Shown here: positions 7,457-51,414 of the stretch, one piece after another | Numbering within the stretch: the stretch's first letter is position 1 | How the letters are laid out: each line of letters opens with the position of its first letter | Virus record (IMG/VR): IMGVR_UViG_3300042261_000981 | Coordinates: 1 to 53,901 of that record | Reading direction: 5' to 3' (one strand) | Source of the DNA: a virus | Lineage: Duplodnaviria > Caudoviricetes | DNA: 53,901 bases | Translations under genes and position numbers: made by a program | Notes under the pieces: model-generated | The model's input: the letters and a program-made list of their open reading frames with translations, nothing else | Told to the model about the DNA's origin: nothing | Database searches by the model: none

Positions 7457-7729
7457 ATGATGAGAAATATAAAAAACTATAATATATTTAATGAAAGTTC
7501 TGGAAACATGTTTCTTCAACTTCTATTGGATAGTGTATATCTATTCAAAGTGAAAGATTTTAGCACTACATTAATTGGAAGATATGATAACATAAAAGAT
7601 TGTTATTATATACAAAGAGGAGATGGATTAAAGTATGAATATACTTCAGATAGAATTGTTTGGAGTAAAAAATTAAAATGCGAGATAGTTATTAATGAAA
7701 ATGATCCTTACGGAGAAGAAATATGGTGA
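7457..7729 (+). CDS. Hypothetical protein, C-terminal DPYGEEIW
   Basis: ORF, TAATATATA at 7440, capsid-targeting-like N-terminus. Confidence 0.75.
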   Translation: MMRNIKNYNIFNESSGNMFLQLLLDSVYLFKVKDFSTTLIGRYDNIKDCYYIQRGDGLKYEYTSDRIVWSKKLKCEIVINENDPYGEEIW

Positions 7730-7733
7730 GAAT

Positions 7734-8282
7734 ATGATAACAAAATTTTTAAGATTTATTAACGAGGACTTAAATTTCGATTTCGATGAAAACGATTGGA
7801 GCGAGATCGAAAAAATAAAGACGGATACCACTCATAGAAGAGGCGAATTTTTACCATACGAAATAGAATATTTTGAGAAGATTGGTCTAACTTTACAAGC
7901 TAAAAATATGTTATCTGAAAGAACTCCACAATATAGAGTAAGTGTTACTAAAAGAATAAATGCTGTAAATGATAATAGATTTGCAGGATCTACAAATCCC
8001 AAAAAAGAACCATTTCATATAAATTATCATATCAGTTTAACTGATCAACATGGTAATACTATAAAAAATTTTTTGACTGGAGAAATGAGTCCAGAAACTC
8101 CATTTGATACTATAAAACCCATAGTTAAAAGAATATTGAAAGAAATATATATTATATTATGGGAAAAAGGTTGGGATCCAGAAGCTGCCAGAAAGCAAAA
8201 AGAACAAAGAGAAAAATCATTTTTAAAACATAAAGATGAAGATCCATACGGCGAAGAAAAATGGGAGGAGGACGAAAAATGA
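7734..8282 (+). CDS. Hypothetical protein with DPYGEEKW
   Basis: Start moved to MITKFLRFINE at 7734. Confidence 0.75.
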   Translation: MITKFLRFINEDLNFDFDENDWSEIEKIKTDTTHRRGEFLPYEIEYFEKIGLTLQAKNMLSERTPQYRVSVTKRINAVNDNRFAGSTNPKKEPFHINYHISLTDQHGNTIKNFLTGEMSPETPFDTIKPIVKRILKEIYIILWEKGWDPEAARKQKEQREKSFLKHKDEDPYGEEKWEEDEK

Positions 8283-8719
8283 TATATAAATACGATGAAT
8301 TTTTAAATGAAACACACTATGTCGATTTAACACCGTATGAATATGCTGTTAAACCAGGAGCTTATAAGAATGCTGTAAATATAGGTTGGTTAGATAAAGG
8401 ACAAGATTATACAAAAGGAGAAGTTCCTGTAGGATTTTTGAAAAAACTAGCTAACGCTGAAATATTGGCTCATCATAAAGGGGGACATAGATGCCCTTTC
8501 TGTGGTGGCGGATATAGTAGTCAGGTTCATTATGTACAAGGAAACGGAATTAAATATGTATTTCCTCAAATGTTATCTCATTATATAAGTGAACATAATT
8601 ATAAACCGCCTCAGGAATTTATTGATGCTGTAATGTCTTTAAAAGACAAAAAAGAAGAAAGATTCAAACAAGAATTTCATCCCCCTAGTGGAGGATCACG
8701 TGGTTGGCCTTGGGGTTAA
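8279..8719 (+). CDS. Conserved hypothetical protein, probable metal binder
   Basis: GWL...GHRCPFC...HYISEHNYKPPQEF; start MIYKYDEFLNE overlaps the previous stop. Confidence 0.75.
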   Translation: MIYKYDEFLNETHYVDLTPYEYAVKPGAYKNAVNIGWLDKGQDYTKGEVPVGFLKKLANAEILAHHKGGHRCPFCGGGYSSQVHYVQGNGIKYVFPQMLSHYISEHNYKPPQEFIDAVMSLKDKKEERFKQEFHPPSGGSRGWPWG

Positions 8720-8732
8720 AATCCATCCAGCC

Positions 8733-8938
8733 TTATTCGACTTTTTCAAAATTGGAAGCATCAATGTGTAATTCGTGACCATTTATAAAAACTCTTAAAT
8801 GATTTTTAGCAACTCCTCTAACAACACCCTCTTAAGTCTTACTTTATCTCCAGTTTTTATTTTGGCTGAACTCATTGCGTTTTTCATCAATTCATCCATA
8901 TTTAATTCGAACTCCTCAAAAGTTTTTAAATTGTTCAT
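8733..8938 (-). pseudogene. Frameshifted small KOW/SH3-like gene
   Basis: MNNLKTFEEF...GDKVRLK continues in another frame as EGVVRGVAKNHLRVFINGHELHIDASNFEKVE. Confidence 0.55.
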
Positions 8939-9025
8939 GGATTTTTCTTTTCTTTTACTCTATATATTTTTTTATTTTTTTCAATTAGTGATATTTAATA
9001 TATACTAGAAAAGACAAAAAATTAA

Positions 9026-12404: not shown

Positions 12405-14119
12405 AAAACGTAGATTCTTATGAATTGCATATTATAAATGAAAGTTTTGATTATAGACTTTACGAAACAAAGAAAAGTAATTTTTTTCTTGGCGTTCAAA
12501 ATGACTTAAAGAAAAAACTATCATTAAATTTATATTTTGTTGGAACTTTCCAAATGGGAATATCTGCTTTATACCCAATAGTTGAGGCTTTAATGCACAA
12601 CGAAAGAGTTATGGGCATTACTGACGAACGAATTGTTCTACTAACCTTATTTGCCATAACACAAATTTTACACGTTTTTAACGATGACTTCAAGAGAATT
12701 AAAGAAGAACTCAAAGATCAAGGTCTTATGGAATGGGCTAACAAGGTAAAAGAAACTGTATTATCTGTTAGTAGATTATTTAAGTTTGTTGCAGAGAGTT
12801 TTGGAAAAATTGTTGATGCTTTTACTGACATGTTTGCTTATGTGGCTTTGGCAATTCCTTTTGAAGCTGTTGTATTAGATTTAATTATGAAACATGGATT
12901 AGATACTAAAACATTTCCATATGAAATTGGATTAATTGGTGTTGGAGTAGGTATATTTTCTATTAAGACTTTAATAAGTAAAATATGGGAGAAAATAAAA
13001 GGAAAGAGAAATGAATCTTATTTGATTGAAAATAATATTAACGATGAACATTTATTAGTATCAGCTTTCCCAGGAATGCGTCTTATATCTGGTTTCCCAG
13101 GCATAGGTAAGAGTCATTTCTTCAGAGTTATGCAACAAGATGGTATTAAAAAAGTATTAGATTCAGATTCTACTAATTTTTCATGGATAGAGAAGGGAGT
13201 TAGAAATCCTGATTTTCCAAATAACTATATTGATCATATAAAGAAAAATAAAGATAAAGCAGATATTATTCTAATATCATCACATGATGTTGTAAGAAAA
13301 GCTTTAGTCGAAAATAATATTCCTTTTATATTAGTTTATCCGAATAGAAATATAAAGGAAGAATATATTGCTAGATATAGACAAAGAGGCAGTGATGAAA
13401 AATTTGTTAAATTATTAGAAGATAATTGGGATAAATTTATAGATGATTGTGAAAAACAAAAAGGATGTAAACATGTGGTTATTCATAGCGGAGAATACTT
13501 AAGTAATAAGATAGAAGACTTGATGAAGGATGATGAAGTAAATGAAAGACTCTTTGGAAGAAAAAAAGAAAAACATAAAGTTAAGACATTAAAAGATTGG
13601 ATGTTTGTTAAAAAAGGCGAACCTCCAATGACTTTTACCGAAGAAGAAAATGAAAAATTCCAAAAAGAGAAAAGAGTTATTAAGAAAAATTATAGAAAGA
13701 GATTAGACAGGATTTTGCTGGTTTGTCCTTACGGTGAAGAAAAATGGGAGAACGAAAGCGTGAAAAGCTTATTAGACCCTTACGGAGAAGAAGATTGGGA
13801 AGAAAATAAGAATCTCTATATTATTTATGTTATAGGTCAAGATGCTAATTTTCTAGCAAAGAAAAAAATTAGAAAACAAGGAAGGTGGGATGACCCCTAT
13901 TATGAAATAGCTTATAAAGAAAGACACGGTAGATTAGTATTCGATAGAGGATTTAATGTGAACGACCCATATCCAGCAAAAAAAGTAGAAGAAATATTAA
14001 ATGGAACAGAATTAGTTGGTTATACAACAGGATTTAGTAATGTTAGATTTGATACATTAGAAAATATAATACAAGGGACAGGAATAAATATCGATGATAT
14101 TAATTTCATGCATAGATAA
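12401..14119 (+). CDS. Mosaic protein: hydrophobic N-domain, P-loop kinase-like domain, C-terminal modules with CPYGEEKW and DPYGEEDW
   Basis: Hydrophobic helices; GFPGIGKS Walker A and DSDS. Confidence 0.75.
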   Translation: MKNVDSYELHIINESFDYRLYETKKSNFFLGVQNDLKKKLSLNLYFVGTFQMGISALYPIVEALMHNERVMGITDERIVLLTLFAITQILHVFNDDFKRIKEELKDQGLMEWANKVKETVLSVSRLFKFVAESFGKIVDAFTDMFAYVALAIPFEAVVLDLIMKHGLDTKTFPYEIGLIGVGVGIFSIKTLISKIWEKIKGKRNESYLIENNINDEHLLVSAFPGMRLISGFPGIGKSHFFRVMQQDGIKKVLDSDSTNFSWIEKGVRNPDFPNNYIDHIKKNKDKADIILISSHDVVRKALVENNIPFILVYPNRNIKEEYIARYRQRGSDEKFVKLLEDNWDKFIDDCEKQKGCKHVVIHSGEYLSNKIEDLMKDDEVNERLFGRKKEKHKVKTLKDWMFVKKGEPPMTFTEEENEKFQKEKRVIKKNYRKRLDRILLVCPYGEEKWENESVKSLLDPYGEEDWEENKNLYIIYVIGQDANFLAKKKIRKQGRWDDPYYEIAYKERHGRLVFDRGFNVNDPYPAKKVEEILNGTELVGYTTGFSNVRFDTLENIIQGTGINIDDINFMHR

Positions 14120-15192: not shown

Positions 15193-15999
15193 ATGTTTAA
15201 CATAGGAGATAGAGTAATTTATATTTATAAAGGAAAAAGATACGAATTTAAGGGAGGCATGCAAGAACTTGACGGACTTAATGGCACTGTGATAGATATT
15301 CATTTGATTGATTTTGAAGGTGTTGTCGGCATTCAATTTGATGAAAGTATAAGGAAATTTGGTGGGCATAATTGTGAAGGTAGAGGGAAAGAAGGATATT
15401 GTAGATATGTATCTAAAAACGAAGTAGAACATATTGAAGAAAAAGGAGATATAAAGTGGTTTAATGGGGACAAATTCGAAAATAAAAATATAATATATAG
15501 TAACATGATAACAAAATTCGATAATTATATTAAAGAAGAATTTAATCTTATACATAAAATAGGAGTGGCTATGGACCTAAGTAAACCTGATGATGATATT
15601 ATAAAAAAAATAATAAGAATTGTTAGAAAACAAGGAGTAGATGAGGGAAGATATAAAGTAGAATATCTCGACAATGGTGGTAAAACATGGCGTCCTAGTA
15701 GAATAAATAGTTATGTTATAATAAGGGTTCCAAAAGATTTTAAAGACGTGGATCCATATGGTGAAGAAGAATGGGAAGAAAATAAACCAATAAGAATAAG
15801 AATAGATAGACACGTTTATGAACATAATTGGAGACATTATTATATGTTTTATGTAAACGATAGGAAATTAGAAGTATCAGATTCTAATGTAGAGACACTA
15901 ATAGAATTATTGGAGAGACCCAGTAAAAGAAGAGAAGAAGAAAGAGAAAGAGCCAAAAAAAGAGCCAATGATGATCTCAGAAAAGATCTCTTTAATTAA
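15193..15999 (+). CDS. SH3/KOW-like domain in frame with a DPYGEE-family protein (internal start at 15505)
   Basis: FNIGDRV N-domain; internal TAATATATA (15491) then MITKFDNYIKE. Confidence 0.7.
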   Translation: MFNIGDRVIYIYKGKRYEFKGGMQELDGLNGTVIDIHLIDFEGVVGIQFDESIRKFGGHNCEGRGKEGYCRYVSKNEVEHIEEKGDIKWFNGDKFENKNIIYSNMITKFDNYIKEEFNLIHKIGVAMDLSKPDDDIIKKIIRIVRKQGVDEGRYKVEYLDNGGKTWRPSRINSYVIIRVPKDFKDVDPYGEEEWEENKPIRIRIDRHVYEHNWRHYYMFYVNDRKLEVSDSNVETLIELLERPSKRREEERERAKKRANDDLRKDLFN

Positions 16000-18286: not shown

Positions 18287-18359
18287 CCGACAGTAGCTCA
18301 GTTGGTAGAGCGGAAGCCTCTAGATCTTCAAGTCGCGGGTTCGAATCCTGTCTGTCGGG
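18287..18359 (+). tRNA. tRNA with CUA anticodon (amber suppressor), C31-U39 mismatch, no encoded CCA
   Basis: Acceptor ccgacag/ctgtcgg, D arm gctc/gagc, loop ctCTAga, T loop ttcgaat. Confidence 0.85.
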
Positions 18360-18373
18360 CAAAAATAAATAAT

Positions 18374-18781
18374 ATGCTTAAAAAGAACGAATTTAACGCT
18401 TTAGGTGACATTACTGTAGAAGAAGCCTGTAGATTTGGTCTTTTAGAAGAAATGTCAGGAACTCAAGTTCAAGAAAAATTTGGTAATTATATTCCATATT
18501 CTGATGGAAAAACAAGACTTGGTAAGGAAGTCACTGTTGGGGACAGTCTTGTATACTGGGATATTAGAAAAAAGGGGAATATAAAAGGAAGTACTACACC
18601 AAAAGACAAATTAACAGTTGGTTCGAAATATGAAGTTCAAAAGGTAAGTTGGAATGGAAATAGAATAACTGTTATTAATGATCTTGGCAAAAAATCTGTT
18701 GTTGGGACAGATAGGTTTGTTTTTGAAAATAAAAAAATAATTTCACCGATTGATCCTTACGGGGAAGAGTATTGGTATTAA
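18374..18781 (+). CDS. Hypothetical protein, C-terminal DPYGEEYW
   Basis: Start moved to 18374 because the ORF-track start lies inside the tRNA. Confidence 0.75.
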   Translation: MLKKNEFNALGDITVEEACRFGLLEEMSGTQVQEKFGNYIPYSDGKTRLGKEVTVGDSLVYWDIRKKGNIKGSTTPKDKLTVGSKYEVQKVSWNGNRITVINDLGKKSVVGTDRFVFENKKIISPIDPYGEEYWY

Positions 18782-18876: not shown

Positions 18877-19566
18877 ATGCCAAACTGGGTAACAAACGTT
18901 CTAACCATAGATTGTTCAAATGAAATCTTAGAACAAATAAGAGATTTTATCAAAAACGATAAAAGAGTTATAGATTTCGATAAAATCATACCAATGCCAG
19001 AAAGTCTTAGAGTATCTGATAATAGCCTTGGGTCACTTGCTTTACACGCCATTTATTACAAACCATCTAAAGCATCTACTGATGCCGACCCTTACGGTGA
19101 AGAGGATTGGGAAGATCTTGATAAATATAAGGAATCATATATATCAGATGAAGAAGTGCATAAAAGATTTAATAAATTATCAGAAAAAGATAAAGAAGAG
19201 GCTACAAATTTAGCAAAGATATATAAAGATAATTTAGATAACTACGGAAGTAAAACTTGGTACGATTGGGCTTGCAGAAATTGGGGGACTAAATGGAATG
19301 CTAGTGAATCTAGTATTGACAACAATGGAGATATTCGTTTTGAGACAGCATGGGCAACACCACACCCGGTTATAAGAAGATTGAGTGAAATTTTTCCAAC
19401 AGCCACGTTTACAGTTAAATTCGCAGATGAAGATATAGGTAATAATTGTGGTTCATATCAAATAAAAAATGGCGAAGATATTTTCTTCGAAGAAGGCGAC
19501 GAAGATTTCGCGTATGATGTAAAAGGTTGGTCCAGAGAAGATTGGAATAGCGACGATGAAAATTAA
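18877..19566 (+). CDS. YubB/Api92-like ferredoxin-fold (DUF1281-like) protein with inserted DPYGEEDW
   Basis: MPNW, DFDKIIPMP, WYDW..NWGTKWNA, FETAW, ADEDIG. Confidence 0.8.
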   Translation: MPNWVTNVLTIDCSNEILEQIRDFIKNDKRVIDFDKIIPMPESLRVSDNSLGSLALHAIYYKPSKASTDADPYGEEDWEDLDKYKESYISDEEVHKRFNKLSEKDKEEATNLAKIYKDNLDNYGSKTWYDWACRNWGTKWNASESSIDNNGDIRFETAWATPHPVIRRLSEIFPTATFTVKFADEDIGNNCGSYQIKNGEDIFFEEGDEDFAYDVKGWSREDWNSDDEN

Positions 19567-20578: not shown

Positions 20579-21133
20579 TTATTTCTCCCACCAGTTTTCT
20601 TCACCATAAGGATCTATACCTTTCATCTTTGTTTCAGTATCTTTTTTGATCCTTTCATATTCTTCTCTTTCGACTTTTATTTTAGATCTAAGTTGAGATT
20701 TTTCCTCCTCTCCAATATCATTGGCTTCATATTTATTAAAAATATTTATAATCTTATCTTGTTTAACAAAAGTTAATGTTCCTTGATCTGGTCCGCCTTC
20801 TACATTTGCAATTATAAGAGATTTCATCATGTCTGAAATTAAATATAAATCTCCATAACTATATCTATCATTATCGCCATATAAACTACCAGATTTTACA
20901 TACCCCTTAAATCTCTTTATGAAATTTTCAATATAATCATAAGGTAATATAACCTTTGGTCCAGTCTCTCCTTTTTTAGGTCTGGGATATTCTCTTCTAT
21001 TGTCCTCAGCATATCTTTTTCTTAATGCATCTAGATTTGAATAGACAAAATCATCAACATCAAATCCATTTGGTACTAAAATAACGTAGCTAGTTGAGCT
21101 ACTATTACTTACAAATCCACTTCTTATTTTCAT
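20579..21133 (-). CDS. MKIRSGFVSNSSSTS-leader protein with DPYGEENW
   Basis: ORF translation. Confidence 0.85.
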   Translation of the reverse strand: MKIRSGFVSNSSSTSYVILVPNGFDVDDFVYSNLDALRKRYAEDNRREYPRPKKGETGPKVILPYDYIENFIKRFKGYVKSGSLYGDNDRYSYGDLYLISDMMKSLIIANVEGGPDQGTLTFVKQDKIINIFNKYEANDIGEEEKSQLRSKIKVEREEYERIKKDTETKMKGIDPYGEENWWEK

Positions 21134-21663
21134 AATTCGTCAAATTTTTTAATTTTATTAGATTCTTTCATATCTAATCCATCTTCATCGTCCCACTCTT
21201 CCTCACCGTAAGGATCATGAACTTTCATTTTATCTTTTAATATTTCTCTTTTAAGTTTTCTTTCTGATGCTTTATCTTTATACTTGAAAATGTCTTCTTT
21301 ATGTTTATTTTCGATGACATTCATCTTATCCATTTCTCTTTTACTAATAAGTTTTATTATGCCCGATTCCTCTTGACAAGCTTCGTATGCAATAAAGATA
21401 ATATAATCATTAAGAAGTGTTTGTAATGGCAAAAACAATCTATTTTCGTATTCATGGCAAATACCATCCTTTATGAATTTTTTAATATCAGACTCTTTAA
21501 GGGTATTAACATTGTTATAATCATCCATATAAACTTTTTTCTTGCCTTTGTTCTTATCCAAGAATGCTTCTTTGGCTGTATCAAAATCAAAATCATCTGG
21601 TAAATATACCAAAATGAAAGATGATCCGCTACTATTACTTACAAATCCTGTTCTTATTTTCAT
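21130..21663 (-). CDS. MKIRTGFVSNSSGSS-leader protein with DPYGEEEW
   Basis: ORF translation. Confidence 0.85.
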   Translation of the reverse strand: MKIRTGFVSNSSGSSFILVYLPDDFDFDTAKEAFLDKNKGKKKVYMDDYNNVNTLKESDIKKFIKDGICHEYENRLFLPLQTLLNDYIIFIAYEACQEESGIIKLISKREMDKMNVIENKHKEDIFKYKDKASERKLKREILKDKMKVHDPYGEEEWDDEDGLDMKESNKIKKFDEL

Positions 21664-22226: not shown

Positions 22227-22242
22227 CAAATAATATTTTTTT

Positions 22243-22620
22243 TTAATATCGATGACTGATATATTCATCGTCGACTTCAACTACATTAGAAAGAAACCAC
22301 CCCATATCAAAATTATCCATAATAGTATATACTTCTATAGTATTTTCTTTTTCTTCAACATCCCAACTATCATATGGCTCAATACCATACATGAGATTTC
22401 TTATCTTTGTACCAAATAAATCAGTATCATTCTCATCCCAATTTTCTTCACCATAAGGATCATCATCAGAATAAACTCTCTCAGATTCACTATACATAAG
22501 TTTATTACAAACATCCAAATGATTCTTAATCATTTCTATTTGCTCTTCGTTTAGTCCTTCCTTTTTAATTATATAACTAGAAGAACTACTATTACTTATA
22601 AAATATAATCTTAATTTCAT
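22243..22620 (-). CDS. MKLRLYFISNSSSSS-leader protein with internal DPYGEENW
   Basis: ORF translation. Confidence 0.85.
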   Translation of the reverse strand: MKLRLYFISNSSSSSYIIKKEGLNEEQIEMIKNHLDVCNKLMYSESERVYSDDDPYGEENWDENDTDLFGTKIRNLMYGIEPYDSWDVEEKENTIEVYTIMDNFDMGWFLSNVVEVDDEYISHRY

Positions 22621-22626
22621 ATTTTT

Positions 22627-23199
22627 TTAATATTCTTCTTCATATGGGTATTCATATTCCCATTCTTCTTCCCCGTAAGGATCATTTTTACTTATTGTCA
22701 TTTTTGGTTTATCATCCCAAAAAAATTTTCTTCTACCTAATGGGTGTTTTCTTGGTTTTCCCATCCATTCTAAATCTCCTTTTAAATATCTAAGTTCTAG
22801 TCTATATATCATTTCATCTACACTATCAAATTTTAATTTATCAGGGGCATAATAAAATTCTAATCTAAAGTCTTCCGGACCCAATTTATCATTAACTTCC
22901 AACCAAGTCATAGTAAGATCTTTTATATCTATTTTTACTTTCTCTCTATAAATCAAACTTTTATTTCTTTCTTCTTCATCTTCAACGTATTGTTTGCTTA
23001 TAGGATCCCAATTGAATTTACTAGCAGCCCAAGATCTTTTGATATGAGTAAATGTAATACTATCATTTTCTTTGGTATCATCTATTATTATACGACTAAA
23101 TGACGCCATTTTTAATTTTTTAGATATTTCTTCTAATTTTATAAGAACGGTATAATAATCATCTTCAATATTTTCAAATATTTTAAAGTTAATAATCAT
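22627..23199 (-). CDS. Hypothetical protein, C-terminal DPYGEEEW
   Basis: ORF, TAATATATA upstream. Confidence 0.75.
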   Translation of the reverse strand: MIINFKIFENIEDDYYTVLIKLEEISKKLKMASFSRIIIDDTKENDSITFTHIKRSWAASKFNWDPISKQYVEDEEERNKSLIYREKVKIDIKDLTMTWLEVNDKLGPEDFRLEFYYAPDKLKFDSVDEMIYRLELRYLKGDLEWMGKPRKHPLGRRKFFWDDKPKMTISKNDPYGEEEWEYEYPYEEEY

Positions 23200-23231: not shown

Positions 23232-24290
23232 TTAGATTTTATAAATTGGACAATCTCTCCCACAATGCAATAACCTACCCTTAAACTCTTTGGTTTTTTC
23301 ATTATTCCATACATCATTCAAAAAATCGTCACAATCTATTACTGATATGCCTTTCTCCCAATTTGTAGTATTGGTAGCGAAAGAACACGGGAAATAATCT
23401 CCTTTAACGTTAATATAACTGGAATAGATAGTTGCTTCACATGGCTCGACCATGGCTTCCATCATTTTATAGTTCTTTCTTCCTTCTATTGATTTCAGGA
23501 ATTTGAAACTACCACAACTATCAAAACCAATTGGAATATTATTATCTATAGCCCTATCAACAAGCGCCTTAAATTTATCTTGACTTAATTGTAAAAATCC
23601 TGTTTTTGCACACCCTTTTGTTTTAAGTGATAAGAAAACTATTGCGTTTAATTTTTGCAATCTATTATCTGTCTTTATATCATCAAGAGTTTGCATAGCA
23701 TCATCAAATGTTTCTTCACTCAACATGAAGTGAATATTAGTTTGCTTCAATCCCCTATCAGTTAACTCTTTTACTGCATTGTATGTAGTATCTTTATCAT
23801 ATTTAGATACAGCGCAAGCCCCAACGGTCGATGCTAACCTATCAAAAAGTTCATCGTTCATCCTACTACCATTGATAGTAATATTTGGAATAACTCCTTT
23901 ACTATGACAATATTTCATGATATTCCATAGATCGGGATTTCCATCTATATTACCAATACCTAAAGCTACTTGAGTTACTGTAGGTGGGAGTTTTTCGAGA
24001 ACTGTTTGGAATGTTTCTAGACTCATGTTTTCTCCTCTTGGAGTGTTCTCTTTATAACAGAATTTACAGATACCGTGTACTCCGTTACAAACGGTTGATA
24101 TTTCAATGTCTGCTATTTCTGGGAGTCCTACGCTCAGGTCTCCATCGTCTTCTTTTGTTTCTCCCCATCTAACGAAGAAACCATTTGATTTATTGAAAAT
24201 GAAATTGTAATTCTTACTTTGCAGAACCTTTGTGTTGGCGTCCTCAACCAGTCTGGCTGTTTCACCATTGGATAATTTTATCTCTATCAT
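23232..24290 (-). CDS. Radical SAM protein with SPASM/twitch-like C-terminus
   Basis: CNGVHGICKFC (CX6CX2C), NITING, PCEA...INVKGDYFPCSF, CGRDCP. Confidence 0.88.
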   Translation of the reverse strand: MIEIKLSNGETARLVEDANTKVLQSKNYNFIFNKSNGFFVRWGETKEDDGDLSVGLPEIADIEISTVCNGVHGICKFCYKENTPRGENMSLETFQTVLEKLPPTVTQVALGIGNIDGNPDLWNIMKYCHSKGVIPNITINGSRMNDELFDRLASTVGACAVSKYDKDTTYNAVKELTDRGLKQTNIHFMLSEETFDDAMQTLDDIKTDNRLQKLNAIVFLSLKTKGCAKTGFLQLSQDKFKALVDRAIDNNIPIGFDSCGSFKFLKSIEGRKNYKMMEAMVEPCEATIYSSYINVKGDYFPCSFATNTTNWEKGISVIDCDDFLNDVWNNEKTKEFKGRLLHCGRDCPIYKI

Positions 24291-32302: not shown

Positions 32303-32675
32303 TTACGAAATATCGTCCTTTTTCAACATACTGATTTTGACACCTGATGATATACATCCACCCCTTGTGTCTTTGTCAATCTTCTCCAACGACAACATGT
32401 CTTCCACCTATGGTCTCTAACTCTACTCCATCTTTTAATTTATAAAAATATTTAAGTGGAACTAATAATATTGGTTCACTAATTTTCGGAAAATGTTCTG
32501 GATGACAAATAGCAAATCCCAATTCTTTGAGATCTTCTTCGGTATAATCGTAAATATCAACCTTTTTTGATTTTTCAAATTCATCAAGCCATTCAGGATC
32601 CCAAAATTCTTCACCATATGGGTCTTCTGGAGTAACTATCCTTCTTTCTAGAAATTTATTATATTTATGTATCAT
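32303..32675 (-). pseudogene. Hypothetical DPYGEEFW protein with probable C-terminal frameshift
   Basis: ORF stops at VVGED; another frame continues IDKDTRGGCISSGVKIS to 32303. Confidence 0.55.
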
Positions 32676-35811: not shown

Positions 35812-36396
35812 CTACTTAAATGAATGTTTTTTAATAAGAGAATTTAATCTCTTTGATATTTCTTCTAGTTTTTGAACATCTATAAGTTCTTCGATCCAAT
35901 TTTCTTCACCGTAAGGATCTACCTCTCTATTTTCTTTAATATTTTTAGTCCATTGTGAATTTTTCCAACACTCTTCAAGTTCATTTAATATTTTTTCTAC
36001 GTCTGGTTTTATTTCAACGAGGTCTTCGTCTCTTATTACATCATTAGTTTGATCTAATAGATATAGAAGATATTTTTCGGATTGACTCATATTATCATAA
36101 TAATCATCGGCTATTCTTAAAACATAATCTAGATTCATAGCTAGATTTTCTATCCTTTTAGTTTTAGATTCTGTTTCCTTTATTAAATTGTTATATTCTT
36201 TTATGTATTCAGATCTACCAAAAAAAGATTTAACGGGTTGATAGAAATCTTTTTCTAGCAAACTTAATTCATCTAAAATATCTTTTATTTCTTTTTCGGC
36301 GATATTTTTATATTTCTTTTGCTGTATAAACCCTTGTGTTTTATCTTTTATATATTTGAAATAATTGTAGCTAAGTGAAAAATCGTCTTCTTTCAT
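35812..36396 (-). CDS. Helical hypothetical protein with DPYGEENW (ends in TAG)
   Basis: ORF translation. Confidence 0.75.
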   Translation of the reverse strand: MKEDDFSLSYNYFKYIKDKTQGFIQQKKYKNIAEKEIKDILDELSLLEKDFYQPVKSFFGRSEYIKEYNNLIKETESKTKRIENLAMNLDYVLRIADDYYDNMSQSEKYLLYLLDQTNDVIRDEDLVEIKPDVEKILNELEECWKNSQWTKNIKENREVDPYGEENWIEELIDVQKLEEISKRLNSLIKKHSFK

Positions 36397-37959: not shown

Positions 37960-38796
37960 TTAATCACACACAGTGATCTCATCTGTCATAGAAGGGATGT
38001 ATTCTTTACCTTTATCATCTATAAAAACTAAATTCGGGAAATCATACATTCCAGCTTTATTTACTATTTTTGCTATTTTTGCTTTTACTGGAACTTTTTT
38101 CCAACCGAGTTCCCCACCCATCCATTTTCGGGTTTCTTTCATCTCTATAAAATAAACATTTTTACCGATTAACATCTTCTTAATATCATCATTAAAATTC
38201 ACGTTTCGTTCAGGATATACATGCATTCTGTAATATGGATTGCCCATAAACATAGTGTATATGTTAAAAGATGCAGTATCTCCCCATGTTTCTTCACCGT
38301 ATGGGTCTGCTGGATTATCGCTTAGTACTAGCTTAGCTTTTTTTTTAAAATTGAAAAATTCGTTTATATAACCTCTTCCAGTAAAAGCTTTACCACTAAA
38401 GATTTCTTTAGGTTTTTTTCTATCCTCTTCCCAAGCTTTTTCTCTAGCTTTATCTTCTCTGATTCTATTCCATAAAAATTCATCTATATTATATAAACAG
38501 TCCCTTAGGGTATTTGAAGTATCATTGTATATTATGGTATATCCCAGATCTTTCATGTCTCTTACTCTATAAGTAAAGACGTCCTTTCCTATTTTATAGA
38601 CAGATATTCTATATCTTCCTGTTATAGATAATGCTTTCTGTTTTCCTTCCATTCTAAATGGATACCCCTCATTATTCATTAGAGAATCAATTTCATGTTT
38701 TGTGAAATATTGTTCTGGTGGTTTTTTATCTTCCACTGGTGGCTTGTTTATGATTACAGCCTCAAAATTTTTATATGTAGTTATTATATCTTTCAT
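37960..38796 (-). CDS. Two-module hypothetical protein with DPYGEETW
   Basis: ORF translation. Confidence 0.75.
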   Translation of the reverse strand: MKDIITTYKNFEAVIINKPPVEDKKPPEQYFTKHEIDSLMNNEGYPFRMEGKQKALSITGRYRISVYKIGKDVFTYRVRDMKDLGYTIIYNDTSNTLRDCLYNIDEFLWNRIREDKAREKAWEEDRKKPKEIFSGKAFTGRGYINEFFNFKKKAKLVLSDNPADPYGEETWGDTASFNIYTMFMGNPYYRMHVYPERNVNFNDDIKKMLIGKNVYFIEMKETRKWMGGELGWKKVPVKAKIAKIVNKAGMYDFPNLVFIDDKGKEYIPSMTDEITVCD

Positions 38797-39161: not shown

Positions 39162-39559
39162 TATTTATTCTTATTTTTCTTCCATTCGTTATAAATTTCA
39201 TTGAAGTTATCTAGATTTCTTTTTGCTTTATTAAATATCTTTTCTAACTTTTTTTTCTCATATTCATAATTTTCTTCTTCATCATGTATTCTAATTGTGC
39301 CGTACAAGTGGGTAAATCCTTTTTTATCTTTTTCTTTATTTCTTGGATCTTCTTTCCAATTTTCAACTTTCCACACACTTAAATTTCCAGCTAGTCTATT
39401 GGCTTCTCTTCTAGAATTTGCTAAAATATATCTCACGTGAAAATGATCTCTTCCTTCCATTCCACTATCATAAACATCATATATGTGTTTTTCTTCATTC
39501 CAATCTTCCTCACCATATGGATCTACTGAGTTTACTTCGTTGAATCTTATTATTTTCAC
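39161..39559 (-). CDS. Hypothetical protein, N-terminal DPYGEEDW
   Basis: GTG start, TAATATATA upstream. Confidence 0.75.
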   Translation of the reverse strand: MKIIRFNEVNSVDPYGEEDWNEEKHIYDVYDSGMEGRDHFHVRYILANSRREANRLAGNLSVWKVENWKEDPRNKEKDKKGFTHLYGTIRIHDEEENYEYEKKKLEKIFNKAKRNLDNFNEIYNEWKKNKNK

Positions 39560-39911: not shown

Positions 39912-40865
39912 ATGATTCGAACTTTTGAAGAATATAATTTTTTCAACGAAGAAGAAGAAAAAATTGATCTCTATAATATAATATATCATAAAATTCTAAA
40001 TGGAGAATTGTTAATATACTACACTGGAAAACCTTATTATGGTAGATATACTTATAGAGCCATTAAAAATGAGGGAATTGATGGAGAAGACCACAATGAT
40101 GTAGATCCATACGGTGAAGAGATATGGAACGAACTACCAGAAGGTTTTCAAATATGGAGAGAAACTGGTTTATCTGAAGGTTCTATTATAACAGTACATT
40201 TTGGCGGAAAACAAGTTATTATAGCTAGAAAATCATCATTTTTGCCATATAATAAAAAATATAGTGATCTTAAGAAATTATTAAATACGAGATATAGAGG
40301 AAATTTGCCTTCTACTCTTGGAGCTTCTCCTTATGATTACAAAGGGGACCAAATAGAATTAGCTAAAGAACTCGGATTGGACGAATCAGTAAATGAACAA
40401 CTTATAGCGATATTAGGAGCAGTTCCTTTAATGTTATTTTTAACTATATTTGCAAGTAGAGGATTAATAACAAGAAAAGTCTATAAACACTTAATTAAAA
40501 AGGCAAATAATGTAGATATTCAAGTAAGATTATTAAATTTAAATAACGCTGCGGCTTTAGTGCATCAATATGACGTTGTCCCATTTTTTATGTCAAATAA
40601 AACTATTGACGATGGGAGGTTTTATTATATTCGTATAATTTCTGAAGAAAGAAGAATGGACGATGTAGATCCTTATGGCGAAGAGGAATGGGGAGAAGAA
40701 GCTACAGAAATATTAATATCGCAAAATACCAGAAAAATGTTAGTAAAAAATATTCCTATGGATGATTATCCAAAATTGCCTATAGCATCTAAAAGAATTG
40801 TTAAATTAACAAAAGGAGAATATAGACAAATTGTAGAAAAAATAACACCTTTAATTCGACAATAA
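39912..40865 (+). CDS. Two-module protein with two DPYGEExW motifs and a central TM helix
   Basis: ORF translation. Confidence 0.78.
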   Translation: MIRTFEEYNFFNEEEEKIDLYNIIYHKILNGELLIYYTGKPYYGRYTYRAIKNEGIDGEDHNDVDPYGEEIWNELPEGFQIWRETGLSEGSIITVHFGGKQVIIARKSSFLPYNKKYSDLKKLLNTRYRGNLPSTLGASPYDYKGDQIELAKELGLDESVNEQLIAILGAVPLMLFLTIFASRGLITRKVYKHLIKKANNVDIQVRLLNLNNAAALVHQYDVVPFFMSNKTIDDGRFYYIRIISEERRMDDVDPYGEEEWGEEATEILISQNTRKMLVKNIPMDDYPKLPIASKRIVKLTKGEYRQIVEKITPLIRQ

Positions 40866-43133: not shown

Positions 43134-43214
43134 TTTAAACTTATAATTTTTTTGATTATATATTAAAAAAATATCGAAGATTTTTAATATATACATTTAA
43201 AACCACTAAAAATT

Positions 43215-48868: not shown

Positions 48869-48869
48869 A

Positions 48870-49193: not shown

Positions 49194-49212
49194 GTTCTTT
49201 TATTTTTTTTAT

Positions 49213-49671
49213 TTATTCTCCGTAGAATAAGTTCACTAAACTTTCATTCTTTGGTTCTTTTTCTTCGCTTTTTTTCTTTTTTATGTATTTATCTCTTTTT
49301 TCCTGACTATCCGAAGATGTAGCCCATCCTTTTATTTTCCTTTTACCAGCAGTTTTAGGAAAAAATCTCTCATTTGTCTTTTCTTCTTCCTGTGCTTGGA
49401 CCACAGGTTTGGTTTCTTCTTTTTCCTTTGGTTTTCCTGTTTTTATTTTATTCTCACCTATAATTTTTTTAAGTTTTTTTGGAGATAAGTTTTTAAGTTC
49501 TTTCTTACTTTTGCCTGATTTCTTAGCAGCAAGTTTTATTAATTCTTTTACAGAAACACCTTCTAAAACGGCAAATCCTCCAACCTCTGTATATTTACTA
49601 GGTTTTTGTTTCATTTGAAGGTGGTCGTATTCTGTGAATTTTAATAAATTGCCAATTTTATCTTTTGCCAT
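49213..49671 (-). CDS. Lys-rich hypothetical protein
   Basis: ORF, TAATATATA upstream. Confidence 0.75.
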   Translation of the reverse strand: MAKDKIGNLLKFTEYDHLQMKQKPSKYTEVGGFAVLEGVSVKELIKLAAKKSGKSKKELKNLSPKKLKKIIGENKIKTGKPKEKEETKPVVQAQEEEKTNERFFPKTAGKRKIKGWATSSDSQEKRDKYIKKKKSEEKEPKNESLVNLFYGE

Positions 49672-49707
49672 AATTCTGTAATTATTTTTTTATTATATAT
49701 TAATATT

Positions 49708-49969
49708 TTATTTCAATAAATCTCTTAAATCATCTATTAATTTTTTAGCATTTTCTCTTCTTATTCTCTCTAGATTTTGTTTTCTTCGCTCTTCTTCTCT
49801 TTCTTCTTCTAATCTTCTTCGCTCTTCTTTTAATCTTCTTCTCTCTTTATCCTTTTCTAAGATTAAAATCTTCATTCTTTAATTTCTTAATGAGCATATT
49901 CGCTATATCGTTGTCTGGATTATTATCAAACCATCCCCAACCCTCATTGAATTTCTTTACTTTTTTCAT
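49708..49969 (-). pseudogene. Internally deleted fourth paralog of the 49966-51414 family
   Basis: MKKVKKFNEGWG...KKLKNEDFNL joins out of frame to LEKDKERRR...DDLRDLLK. Confidence 0.65.
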
Positions 49970-50415
49970 CCTAGCTTATTTATTATGTTTTGAATTCTTT
50001 CCTTTTTTTGTCTATCCACTTCTTTTCTCTGTCTATCCGCTCTTGAATTAATGTAATCTTCTACATATTTATATAATCTTTTGGCTTCTTTATTTGTAAC
50101 TTCAACTTTTTCGTAATTTAAATATAAAAAATAATTGTAATCTCTCCAAGAGTCCAATTCGAATTCTTTACATAATTCAATGACTACATCTTCCTCTTCA
50201 CATTCTTCTTCACCATAAGGATCCATTGGATTATATTCTTGTTTATCTTGTTTTTTTATAATAAAAGATCGTTCGCCGAATTTAAATCCAAATTCAACAT
50301 CTCTATCTAAATCAATTGTAGTTAGATAATTATAAATTTTATCTACGACATTTTTATATTTAGAACCAAATAATCCTTCATTAAGATATTCTTGATATGT
50401 ATTTAAATTATTCAT
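49966..50415 (-). CDS. Paralog-family protein with DPYGEEEC
   Basis: MNNLNTYQEYLNE start; similar to 50995..51414. Confidence 0.82.
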   Translation of the reverse strand: MNNLNTYQEYLNEGLFGSKYKNVVDKIYNYLTTIDLDRDVEFGFKFGERSFIIKKQDKQEYNPMDPYGEEECEEEDVVIELCKEFELDSWRDYNYFLYLNYEKVEVTNKEAKRLYKYVEDYINSRADRQRKEVDRQKKERIQNIINKLG

Positions 50416-51002
50416 TTTCTATAATTTTCTTTTAAGAAATCCATGAATGAAGTTTTCATAGCGGCGCTCTTTTCTCTTCTTATTCTTTCTTCTTCCGCTA
50501 ATCTTTCTTGCCTTATTCTTTCTTCTTCTTTAGCTAGTCTTTCTTTTTCTATTTTTTCACCATTTTGAAAGAATTCCCATAATTTATCGAAAGCTTTATC
50601 ACTAACTATTTGCTGAACATTATTTATTGTTATAATTCTCTTGTTTTTATCCTCATCTTTCCTCTCTTTTTGAATCATTATTATTAGTTCTTTTAAGTTT
50701 TTAGGACTTTCATCTTCCCAATTTTCTTCACCATATGGATCTATTGGATTTGTTTTATTTCTATTTATAATGTATGTATAAAATAATATATCCTTATCGT
50801 CCGCGCTTTTTAATGATGAATAATGATATTTAAGATCGAATTTTAAGAGTTTTAAATTAATTCCTTTTTTTAATTTCTCTAATATACGATAAATTAAATC
50901 ATCGTCCTGCTCGAGAAACTCTTGTTGTTTTATTTCTTTTGGTTTCTCTCCAGGTCTTTTACCAAATATATTAAACTCGTTCAAATGTTGTAAATTACGC
51001 AT
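50412..51002 (-). CDS. Paralog-family protein with DPYGEENW
   Basis: ERLA.EEERIR tandem repeat in the tail. Confidence 0.8.
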   Translation of the reverse strand: MRNLQHLNEFNIFGKRPGEKPKEIKQQEFLEQDDDLIYRILEKLKKGINLKLLKFDLKYHYSSLKSADDKDILFYTYIINRNKTNPIDPYGEENWEDESPKNLKELIIMIQKERKDEDKNKRIITINNVQQIVSDKAFDKLWEFFQNGEKIEKERLAKEEERIRQERLAEEERIRREKSAAMKTSFMDFLKENYRK

Positions 51003-51414
51003 TTTCTATAATATCCATTGCTTTTTTTAGTTTCAAATCCAATTCGTCTCTTTTTTGATTCTTTTTTCTTTTATTTATAATATTAATTATTTTCTTACAT
51101 TCAAAATGTCCACAGTCAACTTTTTCTCCATTTATGTATAATCTATACGGCGCCCCATCATTCTCAATTTCTACTTCAACTTCATCTGGTTCAACTTCCT
51201 CACCATAAGGATCCATTTCGTTCAACGCTTTACTTTTTTGAGGTTTTATATAAAATCTATAACAACTAGATCCGTATGGACTATTACCCTTTACTATTTG
51301 ATTAATATCGACTTTATTGACATAGTTTAGTAATTTATCTATTACACTTTTATATCTTGAGCCAAATAACCAAGACTCATTCAGATATTCATCGTATGAT
51401 TTTAGATTATTCAT
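50995..51414 (-). CDS. Paralog-family protein with DPYGEEVE
   Basis: MNNLKSYDEYLNE start. Confidence 0.82.
   Translation of the reverse strand: MNNLKSYDEYLNESWLFGSRYKSVIDKLLNYVNKVDINQIVKGNSPYGSSCYRFYIKPQKSKALNEMDPYGEEVEPDEVEVEIENDGAPYRLYINGEKVDCGHFECKKIINIINKRKKNQKRDELDLKLKKAMDIIENA

Follow-up and report, generated by a model that had tools for sequence, protein, structure and literature searches.

DPYGEExW, a conserved peptide that looks like an address or cutting label on accessory proteins of a huge-phage lineage

Tag copies and their carriers in the window

The viral DNA analysed here (the window, 53,901 nucleotides at its full length) is a fragment of a huge-phage genome, and it is syntenic with the region at 678-720 kb of the 735-kb record LR756501. 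A six-frame search confirmed the original prediction of 25 exact DPYGEE copies in 23 ORFs, including its 12 plus-strand starts; the other 13 copies lie on the minus strand. In a greedy ORF set, 23 of 97 window ORFs are tagged, two of them with two copies each. All 25 copies are in frame on the coding strand, and 23 have xW directly after them (all but those at 50206 and 51196), as had been claimed. The predicted variants CPYGEEKW, DPFGEENW and DPYGGW also exist, DPFGEENW in a short unlisted frame. The sites, with one neighbouring radical SAM gene, are as follows.

7703..7720, plus: DPYGEE(IW), residue 83 of 90-aa ORF 7457-7729; C-terminal, W then stop
8241..8258, plus: DPYGEE(KW), residue 183 of 195-aa ORF 7695-8282; C-terminal
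13724..13747, plus: variant CPYGEEKW, residue 442 of 572-aa ORF 12401-14119
13775..13792, plus: DPYGEE(DW), residue 459 of 572-aa ORF 12401-14119; internal
15751..15768, plus: DPYGEE(EW), residue 187 of 268-aa ORF 15193-15999; internal
18752..18769, plus: DPYGEE(YW), residue 151 of 159-aa ORF 18302-18781; C-terminal
19087..19104, plus: DPYGEE(DW), residue 71 of 229-aa ORF 18877-19566; upstream of DUF1281_C (residues 139-213)
20597..20614, minus: DPYGEE(NW), residue 174 of 184-aa ORF 20579-21133 (MKIRxGFVSNSSS family); C-terminal
21199..21216, minus: DPYGEE(EW), residue 150 of 177-aa ORF 21130-21663 (MKIR family); after a long helix
21762..21779, minus: DPYGEE(DW), residue 168 of 206-aa ORF 21660-22280 (MKIR family)
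22444..22461, minus: DPYGEE(NW), residue 54 of 125-aa ORF 22243-22620
22666..22683, minus: DPYGEE(EW), residue 173 of 190-aa ORF 22627-23199; near C-terminus
23232..24290, minus: radical SAM gene with weak SPASM match, 352 aa; tagged genes on both sides
24752..24769, plus: DPYGEE(IW), residue 136 of 262-aa ORF 24347-25135; internal
24836..24853, plus: DPYGEE(DW), residue 164 of 262-aa ORF 24347-25135; second copy
28918..28935, plus: DPYGEE(QW), residue 147 of 192-aa ORF 28480-29058
29813..29830, plus: DPYGEE(SW), residue 62 of 118-aa ORF 29630-29986; after a small KOW/Tudor-like barrel (residues 2-44)
31475..31492, minus: variant DPYGGW, residue 15 of 164-aa ORF 31040-31534; before a hydrophobic membrane-like segment
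31531..31554, minus: variant DPFGEENW, then SI-stop; short frame downstream of ORF 31661-31915, outside the listed ORFs
31933..31950, minus: DPYGEE(DW), residue 99 of 108-aa ORF 31918-32244; C-terminal
32607..32624, minus: DPYGEE(FW), residue 18 of 99-aa ORF 32376-32675; N-terminal class, MIHKYNKFLERRIVTPE leader
35902..35919, minus: DPYGEE(NW), residue 160 of 194-aa ORF 35812-36396
38290..38307, minus: DPYGEE(TW), residue 164 of 278-aa ORF 37960-38796
39506..39523, minus: DPYGEE(DW), residue 13 of 132-aa ORF 39161-39559; N-terminal class
40104..40121, plus: DPYGEE(IW), residue 65 of 317-aa ORF 39912-40865
40668..40685, plus: DPYGEE(EW), residue 253 of 317-aa ORF 39912-40865
50206..50223, minus: DPYGEE(EC, no W), residue 65 of 149-aa ORF 49966-50415
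50724..50741, minus: DPYGEE(NW), residue 88 of 196-aa ORF 50412-51002
51196..51213, minus: DPYGEE(VE, no W), residue 68 of 139-aa ORF 50995-51414

A hydrophobic residue precedes DPYGEExW and an acidic run follows it. The tag separates two modules whose relatives differ in ORF 15193-15999, and its position is kept in all four aligned relatives of ORF 22243-22620, two of which have variants (DPFGEEEW, and DPYGEEEN, which lacks the W). Membrane-like proteins are among the carriers, and the protein of ORF 31918-32244 has a hydrophobic segment at its N-terminus. As predicted for the core enzymes, the window's topoisomerase II, S1, PolB, TerL, PhoH, DHFR and Fcl are untagged, as are its Dam-like methylase and KamA-like enzyme.

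Selection on the peptide

The excess over shuffled sequence is clear: a degenerate DNA pattern for DPYGEE has 25 matches in the window, and 0.00 are expected from 100 dinucleotide-preserving shuffles. The 25 window places within three mismatches of the commonest tag 18-mer encode DPYGEE (24) or CPYGEE (1), and none of them is out of frame or non-coding, the two kinds of copy that the original prediction had named as evidence against it. It had also read variable third codon positions as selection on the peptide. The codon counts bear out the variation (GAT 21, GAC 4; TAC 14, TAT 11; GGT 18, GGC 3, GGA 2, GGG 2), but the synonymous sites of the window tags are not neutral, with TAC in 14 of 25 tags versus 13 of 52 occurrences in the same context (p=9e-4) and GGT in 18 of 25 versus 42 of 138 (p=2e-5). 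DPYGEExW is nevertheless under strong selection as a peptide, because exact copies outnumber one-mismatch copies keeping the W by 129 to 5 (window plus LR756501), synonymous sites vary, and out-of-frame or non-coding copies are lacking.

An explanation in which the peptide is a by-product of a DNA or RNA signal (a recombination joint, a selfish in-frame repeat or an RNA site) is largely refuted, and we give it almost no chance. The lean of window synonymous sites toward one 18-mer beyond context (p=9e-4 to 2e-5) would suit such a signal, as would the ordinary codons of the carriers outside the tag and the position of tags at shuffling boundaries. However, all four Gly codons and both codons each for D, Y and E are used, 100 of the 106 copies within ORFs of LR756501 retain the W two codons further on, and no copy is out of frame or outside an ORF. 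Moreover, the TAC and GGT bias in LR756501 matches the context bias of the whole genome (p=0.68 and 0.42), with some CCT enrichment persisting (p=0.006), and the variants (DPFGEE, DPYGED, DPYNEE) are conservative in protein.

Distribution among phages

LR756501 has 109 coding tag sites in 91 of its 1066 ORFs, and none were found in its 636-642-kb relatives LR756504 and LR756502 or in Cellulophaga phage Calle_2. The notion of a phage-wide system in general therefore did not hold; on the genomes compared, the tag is confined to one huge-phage lineage, whose host is probably a member of the Bacteroidetes, going by published relatives. A search of cellular genomes yielded none with many copies of DPYGEExW. 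As originally predicted, no printed description of the tag was found, as far as literature searches reach.

Comparison of the window with LR756501 indicates that tag carriers are the variable genes that lie between conserved syntenic core genes. Only residues 32-216 of ORF 12401-14119 match the syntenic 232-aa ORF of LR756501, and its tagged part is thus an extension. Similarly, residues 23-144 of ORF 37960-38796 match the whole of an untagged, syntenic 147-aa ORF, so the tag and a C-terminal module have been added.

Carriers, positions and multi-module chains

Once the tag is masked, 114 tagged proteins fall into 107 BLAST clusters. The tag thus appears to ride on otherwise unrelated, fast-changing accessory proteins. 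Carriers include a dCMP deaminase, a CCA-adding enzyme, GNAT and SAM methylase proteins, DUF7919, DUF1281_C and zinc ribbons, and in those with known Pfam domains the tag always lies outside the Pfam envelope. AlphaFold gives pLDDT <50 at and after the tag in both of two models; in the model of ORF 21130-21663, this holds from residue 153 onward.

Among 356 tag instances, 90 lie at most 30 residues from the first Met, 116 lie no more than 12 residues ahead of the stop, and the other 150 are internal, which supports the predicted placement both at termini and within the chain. Most of the N-terminal tags follow a leader of the MIKKFKIFEQ type. Other ORFs resemble beads on a string, with a tag at each joint and up to 12 tags. 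One 673-aa ORF comprises six repeats of a small barrel, a basic helix and a tag, and in a 1233-aa ORF a deaminase and a CCA-adding enzyme are linked by tagged barrels. In a library of 1.84 billion proteins, 401 representatives match the tag profile, the best with up to 12 matched stretches, and the median tag-to-tag spacing is 118 aa. Even within the small set compared, a stand-alone, C-terminally tagged homologue exists for 12 of 272 internal modules. These arrangements show that the tag marks module ends.

Possible functions of the tag

DPYGEExW looks like an undescribed address or cutting label common to roughly a quarter of the window's proteins and some ninety of those of LR756501. We tentatively prefer, with rather less than even confidence, a capsid-targeting and processing label on the model of the T4 CTS, with the head maturation protease as its cutter. 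The peptide would be a portable label, placed in flexible tails and linkers and recognised by a single phage-encoded partner, and it would recruit cargo modules to the head core during assembly. Cleavage behind G-E-E by a Glu-specific head maturation protease would follow, and the freed modules inside the head would enter the next cell together with the DNA. Such cutting would yield the same free modules in the head from single tagged proteins and from multi-module chains. We infer the binding and cutting of the tag, the cutter's identity and the capsid destination of the cargo.

Head maturation proteases follow a rule of the form S/A/G-x-E, and G-E-E would fit a Glu-specific rule of this kind, provided that a small P3 residue is allowed. 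Excerpts of PMC5694885 and PMC10052503 describe the gp21/gp175/gp245 family as cutting after Glu at L/I-x-E, S-x-E and A-x-E, and in an excerpt of the review PMC9026906 the internal proteins of T4, with their CTS, are described much as the variable tag carriers are here. The tag-bearing phages encode a head maturation protease (PHROG 207 at E=1.6e-29, with a weak PF03420 match). They also have a small lineage-specific protease paralogue with the gp21 fold (5jbl, probability 1.00). In 13 of 18 relatives it bears a tag at its C-terminus, at the place occupied in the core protease by the segment FRIYDISDES. This paralogue seems to have lost its His and Ser and to be a pseudo-protease. The tagged paralogue, the fit of G-E-E to the protease rule, the bead-on-string chains and the MIKKFKIFEQ-type leader go beyond the original prediction.

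Several observations argue against cutting or head cargo. At the 116 stop-proximal tags, which stand 2-5 residues ahead of the stop, cleavage would remove almost nothing, and the tag shows much stronger conservation than do the known gp21-family sites. Of the 14 cleavage sites mapped in SPN3US, 13 serve to remove N-terminal propeptides, according to the same excerpts (PMC5694885/PMC10052503). The core protease-scaffold protein is acidic throughout, and no lineage-specific basic patch was seen in it. LR756504, the tag-free relative covered by the protease search, has an orthologous protease; the protease by itself is thus an insufficient explanation of the tag. Finally, about 9% of all ORFs is a large load for a head, and some carriers are membrane-like.

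Alternatively, the tag may never be cut and may instead bind one hub that gathers clients into a phage factory or condensate, the multi-tag chains acting as scaffolds. Many single-tag clients together with chains of 2 to 12 tags have the architecture of known motif-guided assemblies, the tags lie in disordered linkers, and terminal tags suit docking and not cutting. A second motif of LR756501, [VI][RK]WYKKGKL, shares the tag's grammar, occurring at C-termini and between repeats. Yet no hub stands out among the approximately 100 proteins that are conserved across tag-bearing DNA but absent from LR756504, and seven near-invariant residues are unusual in a docking motif; we regard docking alone as somewhat unlikely. 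Near-invariance of every residue would instead suit an active site, as if the Tyr-Gly or Glu-Glu were rewritten by an enzyme (the original prediction had proposed a modification of the invariant Tyr), the candidates being a radical SAM/SPASM enzyme like the tyramine spliceases (XYG) or a RimK-like ATP-grasp ligase acting on Glu. According to PMC11414181 (in excerpt), the XYG tags that spliceases modify can be at either terminus or in internal loops, and the proteins bearing them are unrelated. The radical SAM gene at 23232-24290 is flanked by tagged genes, tagged genes also lie next to its orthologues in three IMG/VR loci, and LR756501 has about nine CxxxCxxC proteins and, beside tagged genes, a RimK-like gene, with no LR756504 counterpart. 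Nonetheless, the window enzyme lacks an orthologue in LR756501, with its 109 tags, and its association is specifically with the MKIRxGFVSNSSS family. The Ser-rich N-terminus of that family may be what the enzyme really targets. In LR756501, 2 of about 9 radical SAM genes adjoin tagged genes, which is near chance by a rough estimate, and no NCBIfam or Pfam matches to the splicease family were found. We consider modification quite unlikely.

The tag could also be a passive linker, a turn, hairpin or helix cap with an acidic solubilising tail that ends modules and was spread by module shuffling without any reader. It is always at module ends, following a basic helix or strand, the second LR756501 motif is likewise a module-end motif, and the same octapeptide is known elsewhere in folded contexts (enolase SIEDPYGEEDW and beta-propeller hairpins). 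We consider a linker improbable, since it would not need seven fixed residues (129 exact copies versus 5 variants), AlphaFold gives the tag no confident structure, and sister phages manage without it. Even poorer prospects attach to a degron that passes accessory proteins to a protease or unfoldase for timed degradation. In its favour, the peptide is conserved, exposed and terminal on many accessory proteins that look short-lived, but internal copies at each chain joint and tagged metabolic enzymes are hard to square with it, and an adaptor candidate was not found.

Comparison with known systems

The proposed capsid-targeting label resembles the T4 CTS and gp21-family propeptides in being a short conserved peptide on divergent, fast-evolving accessory proteins. 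Both can be terminal, and T4 Alt is processed at both ends. Members of the protease family (T4 gp21, phiKZ gp175, SPN3US gp245) cut after Glu, and tag-bearing phages encode such a protease. In contrast, the T4 CTS is N-terminal, comprising the first 10 residues, whereas 266 of 356 phage tags are C-terminal or internal. Known gp21-family cleavage sites have about two fixed residues and DPYGEExW has seven near-invariant ones, and, unlike in T4, the tag marks about 9% of all ORFs and each joint of multi-module chains.

Polyproteins of eukaryotic RNA viruses are cut at comparable sites, those of the potyvirus NIa/TEV protease being seven residues long. As in such polyproteins, a long and strictly conserved peptide stands at each module junction of one chain, and the modules of phage chains occur as separate proteins too. 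However, the tag belongs to a DNA phage, whose genes are separate in the ordinary way, most tags are near a terminus of single-module proteins, and a dedicated active protease was not found, the lineage-specific paralogue seemingly being without His and Ser.

The tags of radical SAM tyramine spliceases (XYG; PlpX, RhaX), as described in the excerpted source, share the invariant Tyr-Gly, the shortness and the placement at termini or in internal loops, and the window's radical SAM/SPASM gene stands among tagged genes. Natural spliceotides are RiPP precursors, whereas the phage tag is on a hundred proteins; the window enzyme, moreover, is missing from LR756501 and is without a family-level match to spliceases.

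Short linear motifs that address proteins to a hub include the Rubisco-binding motif of the algal pyrenoid, clamp-binding motifs and encapsulin cargo-loading peptides. Like these, DPYGEExW is found where unrelated proteins have disordered tails and linkers, with one copy per client and several per scaffold-like chain, but it is much less degenerate.

Occurrence of the tag in the window

Six-frame translation of the window (53,901 bases, 28.7% G+C) yielded the 25 exact copies of DPYGEE counted in the original prediction, at the same positions. A degenerate coding pattern for the tag, GAYCCNTAYGGNGARGAR, matches 25 times, and 0.00 matches are expected from 100 dinucleotide-preserving shuffles. 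The claim that the tag is always in frame on the coding strand holds: all copies are in frame and lie inside 23 ORFs, of 97 in a greedy, non-overlapping ORF set and of the 77 with at least 60 amino acids. Every Gly codon occurs in the tag, as do both codons each for Asp, Tyr and Glu; the variation at Asp, Tyr and Gly had been described. The variants CPYGEEKW, DPYGGW and DPFGEENW are all found. The last of these is followed by SI and a stop codon in a short frame (31531-31660, minus strand) just downstream of the ORF at 31661-31915 (minus strand), and belongs to no listed ORF; it may result from a frameshift or a sequencing error, or else be a tiny gene.

The tag is absent from the core enzymes of the window, again as predicted. 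It does not occur in the split topoisomerase II, S1 protein, PolB, TerL, PhoH or DHFR, nor in the GDP-fucose synthase (Fcl), Dam-like methylase or KamA-family aminomutase. The KamA-family 2,3-aminomutase (41272-42528, minus strand) ends in a NUMOD-like (I-HmuI) piece at residues 372-412, which is a separate frame in the 735-kb tag-bearing relative LR756501. The topoisomerase II gene is split into two parts, 98-1996 and 5597-7375 (both minus strand), which match one 1082-aa ORF of LR756501 (677822-681070). The intervening 3.6 kb looks like a restriction-modification cassette placed into the topoisomerase II gene, and includes these genes:

2304-2981, EcoRI-like endonuclease
2992-4098, D12/Dam-like methylase
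4582-5403, DUF7487 protein

Relatives and spread of the tag

Core genes of the window are collinear with positions 677.8-720.3 kb of LR756501 (735,411 bases), with 50-87% amino-acid identity. PMC7162821 describes a 735-kb genome as the largest phage genome, placed in the Mahaphage clade and predicted to have a Bacteroidetes host. An 814-aa ORF of the window (25180-27624, plus strand), which falls in no Pfam or PHROG family, has matches in Cellulophaga phages and in uncultured phages with genomes of 634-735 kb; it contains four KOW/SH3-like barrels detected with a home-made HMM, and has relatives in both LR756501 and the tag-free LR756504.

LR756501 has 109 coding sites of the tag (43 forward, 66 reverse) and none of a reversed control pattern, and 91 of its 1066 ORFs are tagged. 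There are no tag sites in LR756504 (636 kb), LR756502 (642 kb) or Cellulophaga phage Calle_2, and no peptide word is enriched to a comparable degree in the ORFs of LR756504. In IMG/VR, at least 115 tag-bearing stretches are found, from at least 39 contigs with at least 15 dataset prefixes. When the tag-rich 673-aa chain was compared by tblastn with 50,697 phage records, matches were confined to LR756501 and its twin, LR756503. A tag profile (36 positions, 129 rows) searched against 1.84 billion proteins found 401 representatives at E<=0.001, nearly all with multiple tags. Because only 89 of 293 matches in our own set, almost all of them tag carriers, reach this threshold when tested locally with the database size kept the same, the profile search misses most single-tag proteins.

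Across 185,579 prokaryote species, each represented by a single genome (596 Gb in all), there are 72 single tag matches, by a rough estimate about as many as expected by chance, and no cellular genome has many copies. Host mimicry was therefore rejected. About 20 of the 72 are in Lactobacillaceae enolase, which contains SIEDPYGEEDW (locus L203 and about 20 other prokaryote loci); here the resemblance to the tag is accidental and lies within a folded enzyme. Pfam, PHROGs and NCBIfam hold no family for the tag itself, and full-text literature searches for the peptide, alone or together with phage, returned nothing relevant.

Anatomy and position of the tag

A logo of 278 instances reads [S/K/N]-[D/E/P]-[I/V/L]-DPYGEE-[D/N/E]-W-[E/D/N]-[D/E]-[D/E], in which the W column is inflated because loci were retrieved with a pattern requiring TGG. 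The unbiased figures for xW are 23 of 25 copies in the window and 100 of the 106 in-ORF copies of LR756501. The core is nearly invariant, with 129 exact copies versus 5 single-mismatch copies in which W is kept. The best 150 library matches contain 397 exact copies and 35 conservative variants (DPYNEE, DPYGED, DPFGEE, DPYDEE and others). An EF-hand or DxDxDG calcium loop, with the pattern D-x-[DN]-x-[DNS]-G-x-[ILV]-x-x-x-E, was rejected, as position 5 of the logo is Tyr and position 8 is Glu when D(-2) is taken as position 1.

For 356 tags both ends of the ORF are known; 90 of these are N-terminal (up to 30 residues from the first Met), 116 C-terminal (up to 12 residues before the stop) and 150 internal. 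Most N-terminal tags come after a leader of the MIKKFKIFEQ...DI kind, and of the 20 LR756501 proteins that have a MIKKFKIFEQ-type leader, 11 are tagged, versus 8.5% of all ORFs. C-terminal tags are preceded by K-R-[I/V]-[F/Y]-S-[E/D]-[L/I], and the stop usually occurs two or three residues past the W. In two aligned families the position of the tag is constant while the flanks lose or gain residues. AlphaFold models of two carriers, the window ORF at 21133-21663 and a small protein resembling a protease, encoded on an IMG/VR contig, have confident domains and pLDDT below 50 at the tag and beyond; in the former, the tag directly follows a long basic helix.

Two other motifs were observed in the relatives. 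The [VI][RK]WYKKGKL motif, with acidic residues behind it, shares the grammar of the tag, in that some copies are C-terminal and others separate repeated modules of roughly 95 aa each. It occurs 14 times in LR756501, three times in IMG/VR stretches and not at all in the window. Examples in LR756501 are:

290091-291557, plus strand, ORF with [VI][RK]WYKKGKL
42908-43867, minus strand, ORF with [VI][RK]WYKKGKL
447068-447463, minus strand, ORF with [VI][RK]WYKKGKL

In LR756504, 23 proteins begin with MKY[LI]K, and an acidic run containing WD[DE]EE is found right behind this leader in five of them and at residue 115 in a sixth. The leader and acidic run may be a sister label.

Selection on peptide or DNA

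The evidence favors selection on the peptide over selection on the DNA, given the synonymous variation, the W kept two codons downstream, the conservative protein variants and the lack of out-of-frame copies. All window sites within three mismatches of the commonest 18-mer encode DPYGEE (24) or CPYGEE (1), and the search for non-coding or out-of-frame copies, which could have undermined the original prediction, returned none. Tag codons in the window do lean toward GAT CCT TAC GGT GAA GAA beyond the context bias of the window: TAC is used in 14 of 25 tags versus 13 of 52 Tyr codons before GGN (p=9e-4), and GGT in 18 of 25 versus 42 of 138 (p=2e-5). Outside the tag, the window carriers use ordinary codons (TAC 16%, GGT 30%). 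In LR756501 the TAC and GGT preferences of the tag equal the context bias of the genome as a whole (p=0.68 and 0.42), and CCT is enriched (p=0.006). Some selfish DNA repeats, such as the Rickettsia palindromic element, insert in frame. An element of this kind was rejected, because the DNA is not more conserved than the peptide and no copies occur in other frames or outside genes. A signal read in the nucleic acid is hardly credible as the function of the tag.

Carriers, modules and chains

With the tag masked, the 114 carriers (23 from the window and 91 from LR756501) form 107 BLAST clusters, so paralogy was rejected as an explanation of the tag. Carriers that can be typed with Pfam include a dCMP deaminase, CCA-adding enzyme, GNAT acetyltransferase, SAM methyltransferase, nucleotidyltransferase and phosphoribosyltransferase, as well as DUF7919, DUF6934 and zinc-ribbon proteins and, in the window, DUF1281_C. 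In every one of them the tag is outside the domain envelope. The tagged genes of the window occupy variable slots among conserved syntenic genes, and have no LR756501 orthologue apart from the tag. Two conserved window genes are lengthened by a linker, a tag and an extra module: residues 23-144 of the ORF at 37960-38796 correspond to an entire untagged LR756501 ORF of 147 aa, and in the ORF at 12401-14119 the match to a 232-aa LR756501 ORF is limited to residues 32-216.

Some ORFs are strings of modules, each of which closes with a basic helix followed by a tag. One such ORF, of 673 aa, consists of six small KOW/SH3-like barrels, and another, of 1233 aa, has the order barrel-tag-deaminase-tag-barrel-tag-barrel-tag-barrel-CCA enzyme. 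Library tag proteins reach 1537 aa and up to 12 matched stretches, and in the best 150 library matches the median spacing from tag to tag is 118 aa (interquartile range 89-135). In a small set biased to multi-tag proteins, a stand-alone homologue beginning close to its own N-terminus and closing with a tag was found for 12 of the 272 internal modules. Free interchange of fused and separate modules would mean either that the joint is cut or that fusion is harmless.

Candidate readers and the radical SAM operon

Phylogenetic profiling identified about 100 LR756501 proteins that are conserved in tag-bearing DNA and missing from LR756504, and that might include a reader, or partner that binds, cuts or modifies the tag. 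Among them are an RNase H-like protein, NUDIX, a glycosyltransferase, PPK2, RtcB, a RimK-like ATP-grasp enzyme and radical SAM enzymes, and no candidate is compelling. KOW/SH3-like barrels, found with the home-made HMM in 13 LR756501 proteins, were rejected as the reader, since only 3 of the 13 are tagged and tag-free LR756504 has barrels too.

A radical SAM gene of the window is flanked by tagged genes, as are its orthologues in three IMG/VR loci. Its SPASM match scores 20.3 bits versus the Pfam cut-off of 21.5, and LR756501 has no orthologue despite its 109 tags. The gene is in a conserved operon with three to five paralogues that begin MKIRxGFVSNSSSSS(F/Y):

23232-24290, radical SAM gene with weak SPASM domain, phrog_7293
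20579-24290, minus strand, radical SAM/SPASM operon with the MKIR paralogues (also in loci L111, L063 and L022)

The MKIR-family paralogues are tagged, and several end in KIKKFKEL. In the loci other than the window, a 132-aa SET-like gene joins the operon. An AlphaFold model of one MKIR-family member has no fold match in the PDB.

Head maturation protease and its small paralogue

The core head maturation protease, whose gene is outside the window, fronts an ORF of about 800 aa in LR756501 and LR756504 alike. The rest of this ORF comprises acidic repeats 14 residues long, a small barrel and a helical terminus. An IMG/VR orthologue matches the PHROG 207 head maturation protease (E=1.6e-29), and matches to PF03420 in the LR756501 and LR756504 proteins are weak. 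In 43 sequences of the core protease, His78 and Ser133/134 do not vary; their spacing, together with the triad given in PMC5694885, suggests which residues are catalytic. No lineage-specific basic patch was detected in the protease-scaffold protein.

LR756501 and other tag-bearing contigs also encode a protease paralogue of 160-180 aa, a modeled fold of which resembles T4 gp21 (PDB 5jbl, probability 1.00, TM-score 0.60). LR756504 has the core protease only, with no counterpart of the small paralogue. A phmmer search of the PDB gave no match for either form. Examples of the small paralogue are:

LR756501, 11314-11850, minus strand
locus L041, 5141-5662, minus strand
locus L034, 1501-1989, plus strand

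The tag is at the C-terminal end of the small paralogue in 13 of 18 relatives. His is kept in 6 of the 18 and Ser in 2, and the protein is likely a pseudo-protease. Its tag aligns with FRIYDISDES, the segment behind the core protease domain. The idea that the small tagged S77 paralogue acts as a reader by gripping its own tail is unsupported, as AlphaFold leaves the tail disordered. Co-folding of the tag module (alignment of 129 rows) with the whole core protease-scaffold protein (alignment of 43 rows) scored 0.00, which gives no answer, neither for nor against.

Possible functions of the tag

The leading reading of the tag, held tentatively, is that of a putative capsid-targeting and processing label. 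Such a label would load cargo proteins into the head, where the Glu-specific head maturation protease would process the tag. As described in PMC5694885 and PMC10052503, members of the gp21/gp175/gp245 family cut after Glu by short rules with L/I, A or S at P3. If Gly is admitted at P3 as well, the G-E-E of the tag is compatible in sequence with this rule. Three observations weigh against a capsid label: the tag is far more conserved than the known sites of this protease family, one third of the tags are a few residues before a stop, and LR756504 has an orthologous protease and no tag. A broader proposal, which is rather unlikely, is that one lineage of the largest known phages has a tag-based protein economy of the eukaryotic-virus kind. 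Up to a dozen unrelated modules would be synthesized as one chain and cut between DPYGEE and xW by a Glu-specific protease, and about 100 accessory proteins (including tRNA-repair, nucleotide-modifying and acetyl- or methyl-transfer enzymes) would be loaded into the capsid by the same label, as a first-strike kit injected with the DNA.

The tag might instead serve for docking only, as a short linear motif. Its low pLDDT in both models, its location outside all Pfam envelopes found and the unrelatedness of its carriers (107 clusters from 114) speak for such a motif, although as a full account of the tag it is somewhat doubtful. A modification site is unlikely; this reading is kept alive by the precedent of spliceases that act on XYG tags, but co-occurrence of the radical SAM gene with the tag fails in LR756501. 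A passive linker is quite improbable, and a degron would be more surprising still.

Huge-phage genes are mostly small and fast-changing, and lack a known function or a handle for study. One invariant label groups roughly 9% of ORFs in the 735-kb phage (91/1066) and 24% in the window (23/97) into a single functional class. The tag also offers an experimental handle, through antibodies, pull-downs and proteomic searches for cut or modified tag peptides, and its tagged and untagged sister clades allow phylogenetic profiling. If it is a packaging and cutting signal, sequence alone would define which proteins an uncultured phage clade injects, and this would be the first phage case of large-scale polyprotein use. 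A docking or modification tag would imply an unknown hub or enzyme. The tag could also be usable as a short orthogonal peptide tool.

Comparison with known systems

Polyprotein sites, splice tags and targeting peptides common to several proteins are all kinds of element known already. Literature searches found no account of a near-invariant eight-residue label that is carried by about one tenth of the ORFs of a phage and marks each joint of multi-module chains.

The splice tags of tyramine spliceases, as described in excerpts of PMC11414181, are XYG sequences at the termini or in loops of unrelated proteins. The Tyr-Gly of DPYGEE, invariant by the way the tag is defined, resembles them, and variants of the tag change Y to F and G to N, D or S. 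A radical SAM/SPASM gene is near tags in the window and three IMG/VR loci, and is missing from LR756501.

In T4, a 10-residue capsid-targeting sequence (CTS) loads divergent internal proteins, and Alt is trimmed at both ends, according to portions of PMC9026906; parts of PMC10052503 report more than 50 gene products inside the SPN3US head. As in T4 and the gp21-family system, these phages encode a gp21-family head maturation protease. The T4 CTS is a short N-terminal leader (the first 10 residues in IPIII), and N-terminal tags likewise share the conserved MIKKFKIFEQ-kind leader, but only 90 of 356 tags are within 30 residues of the Met. The tag resembles viral polyprotein sites in that the same motif is found at each module junction and some modules (12 of 272) also occur as free tagged proteins.
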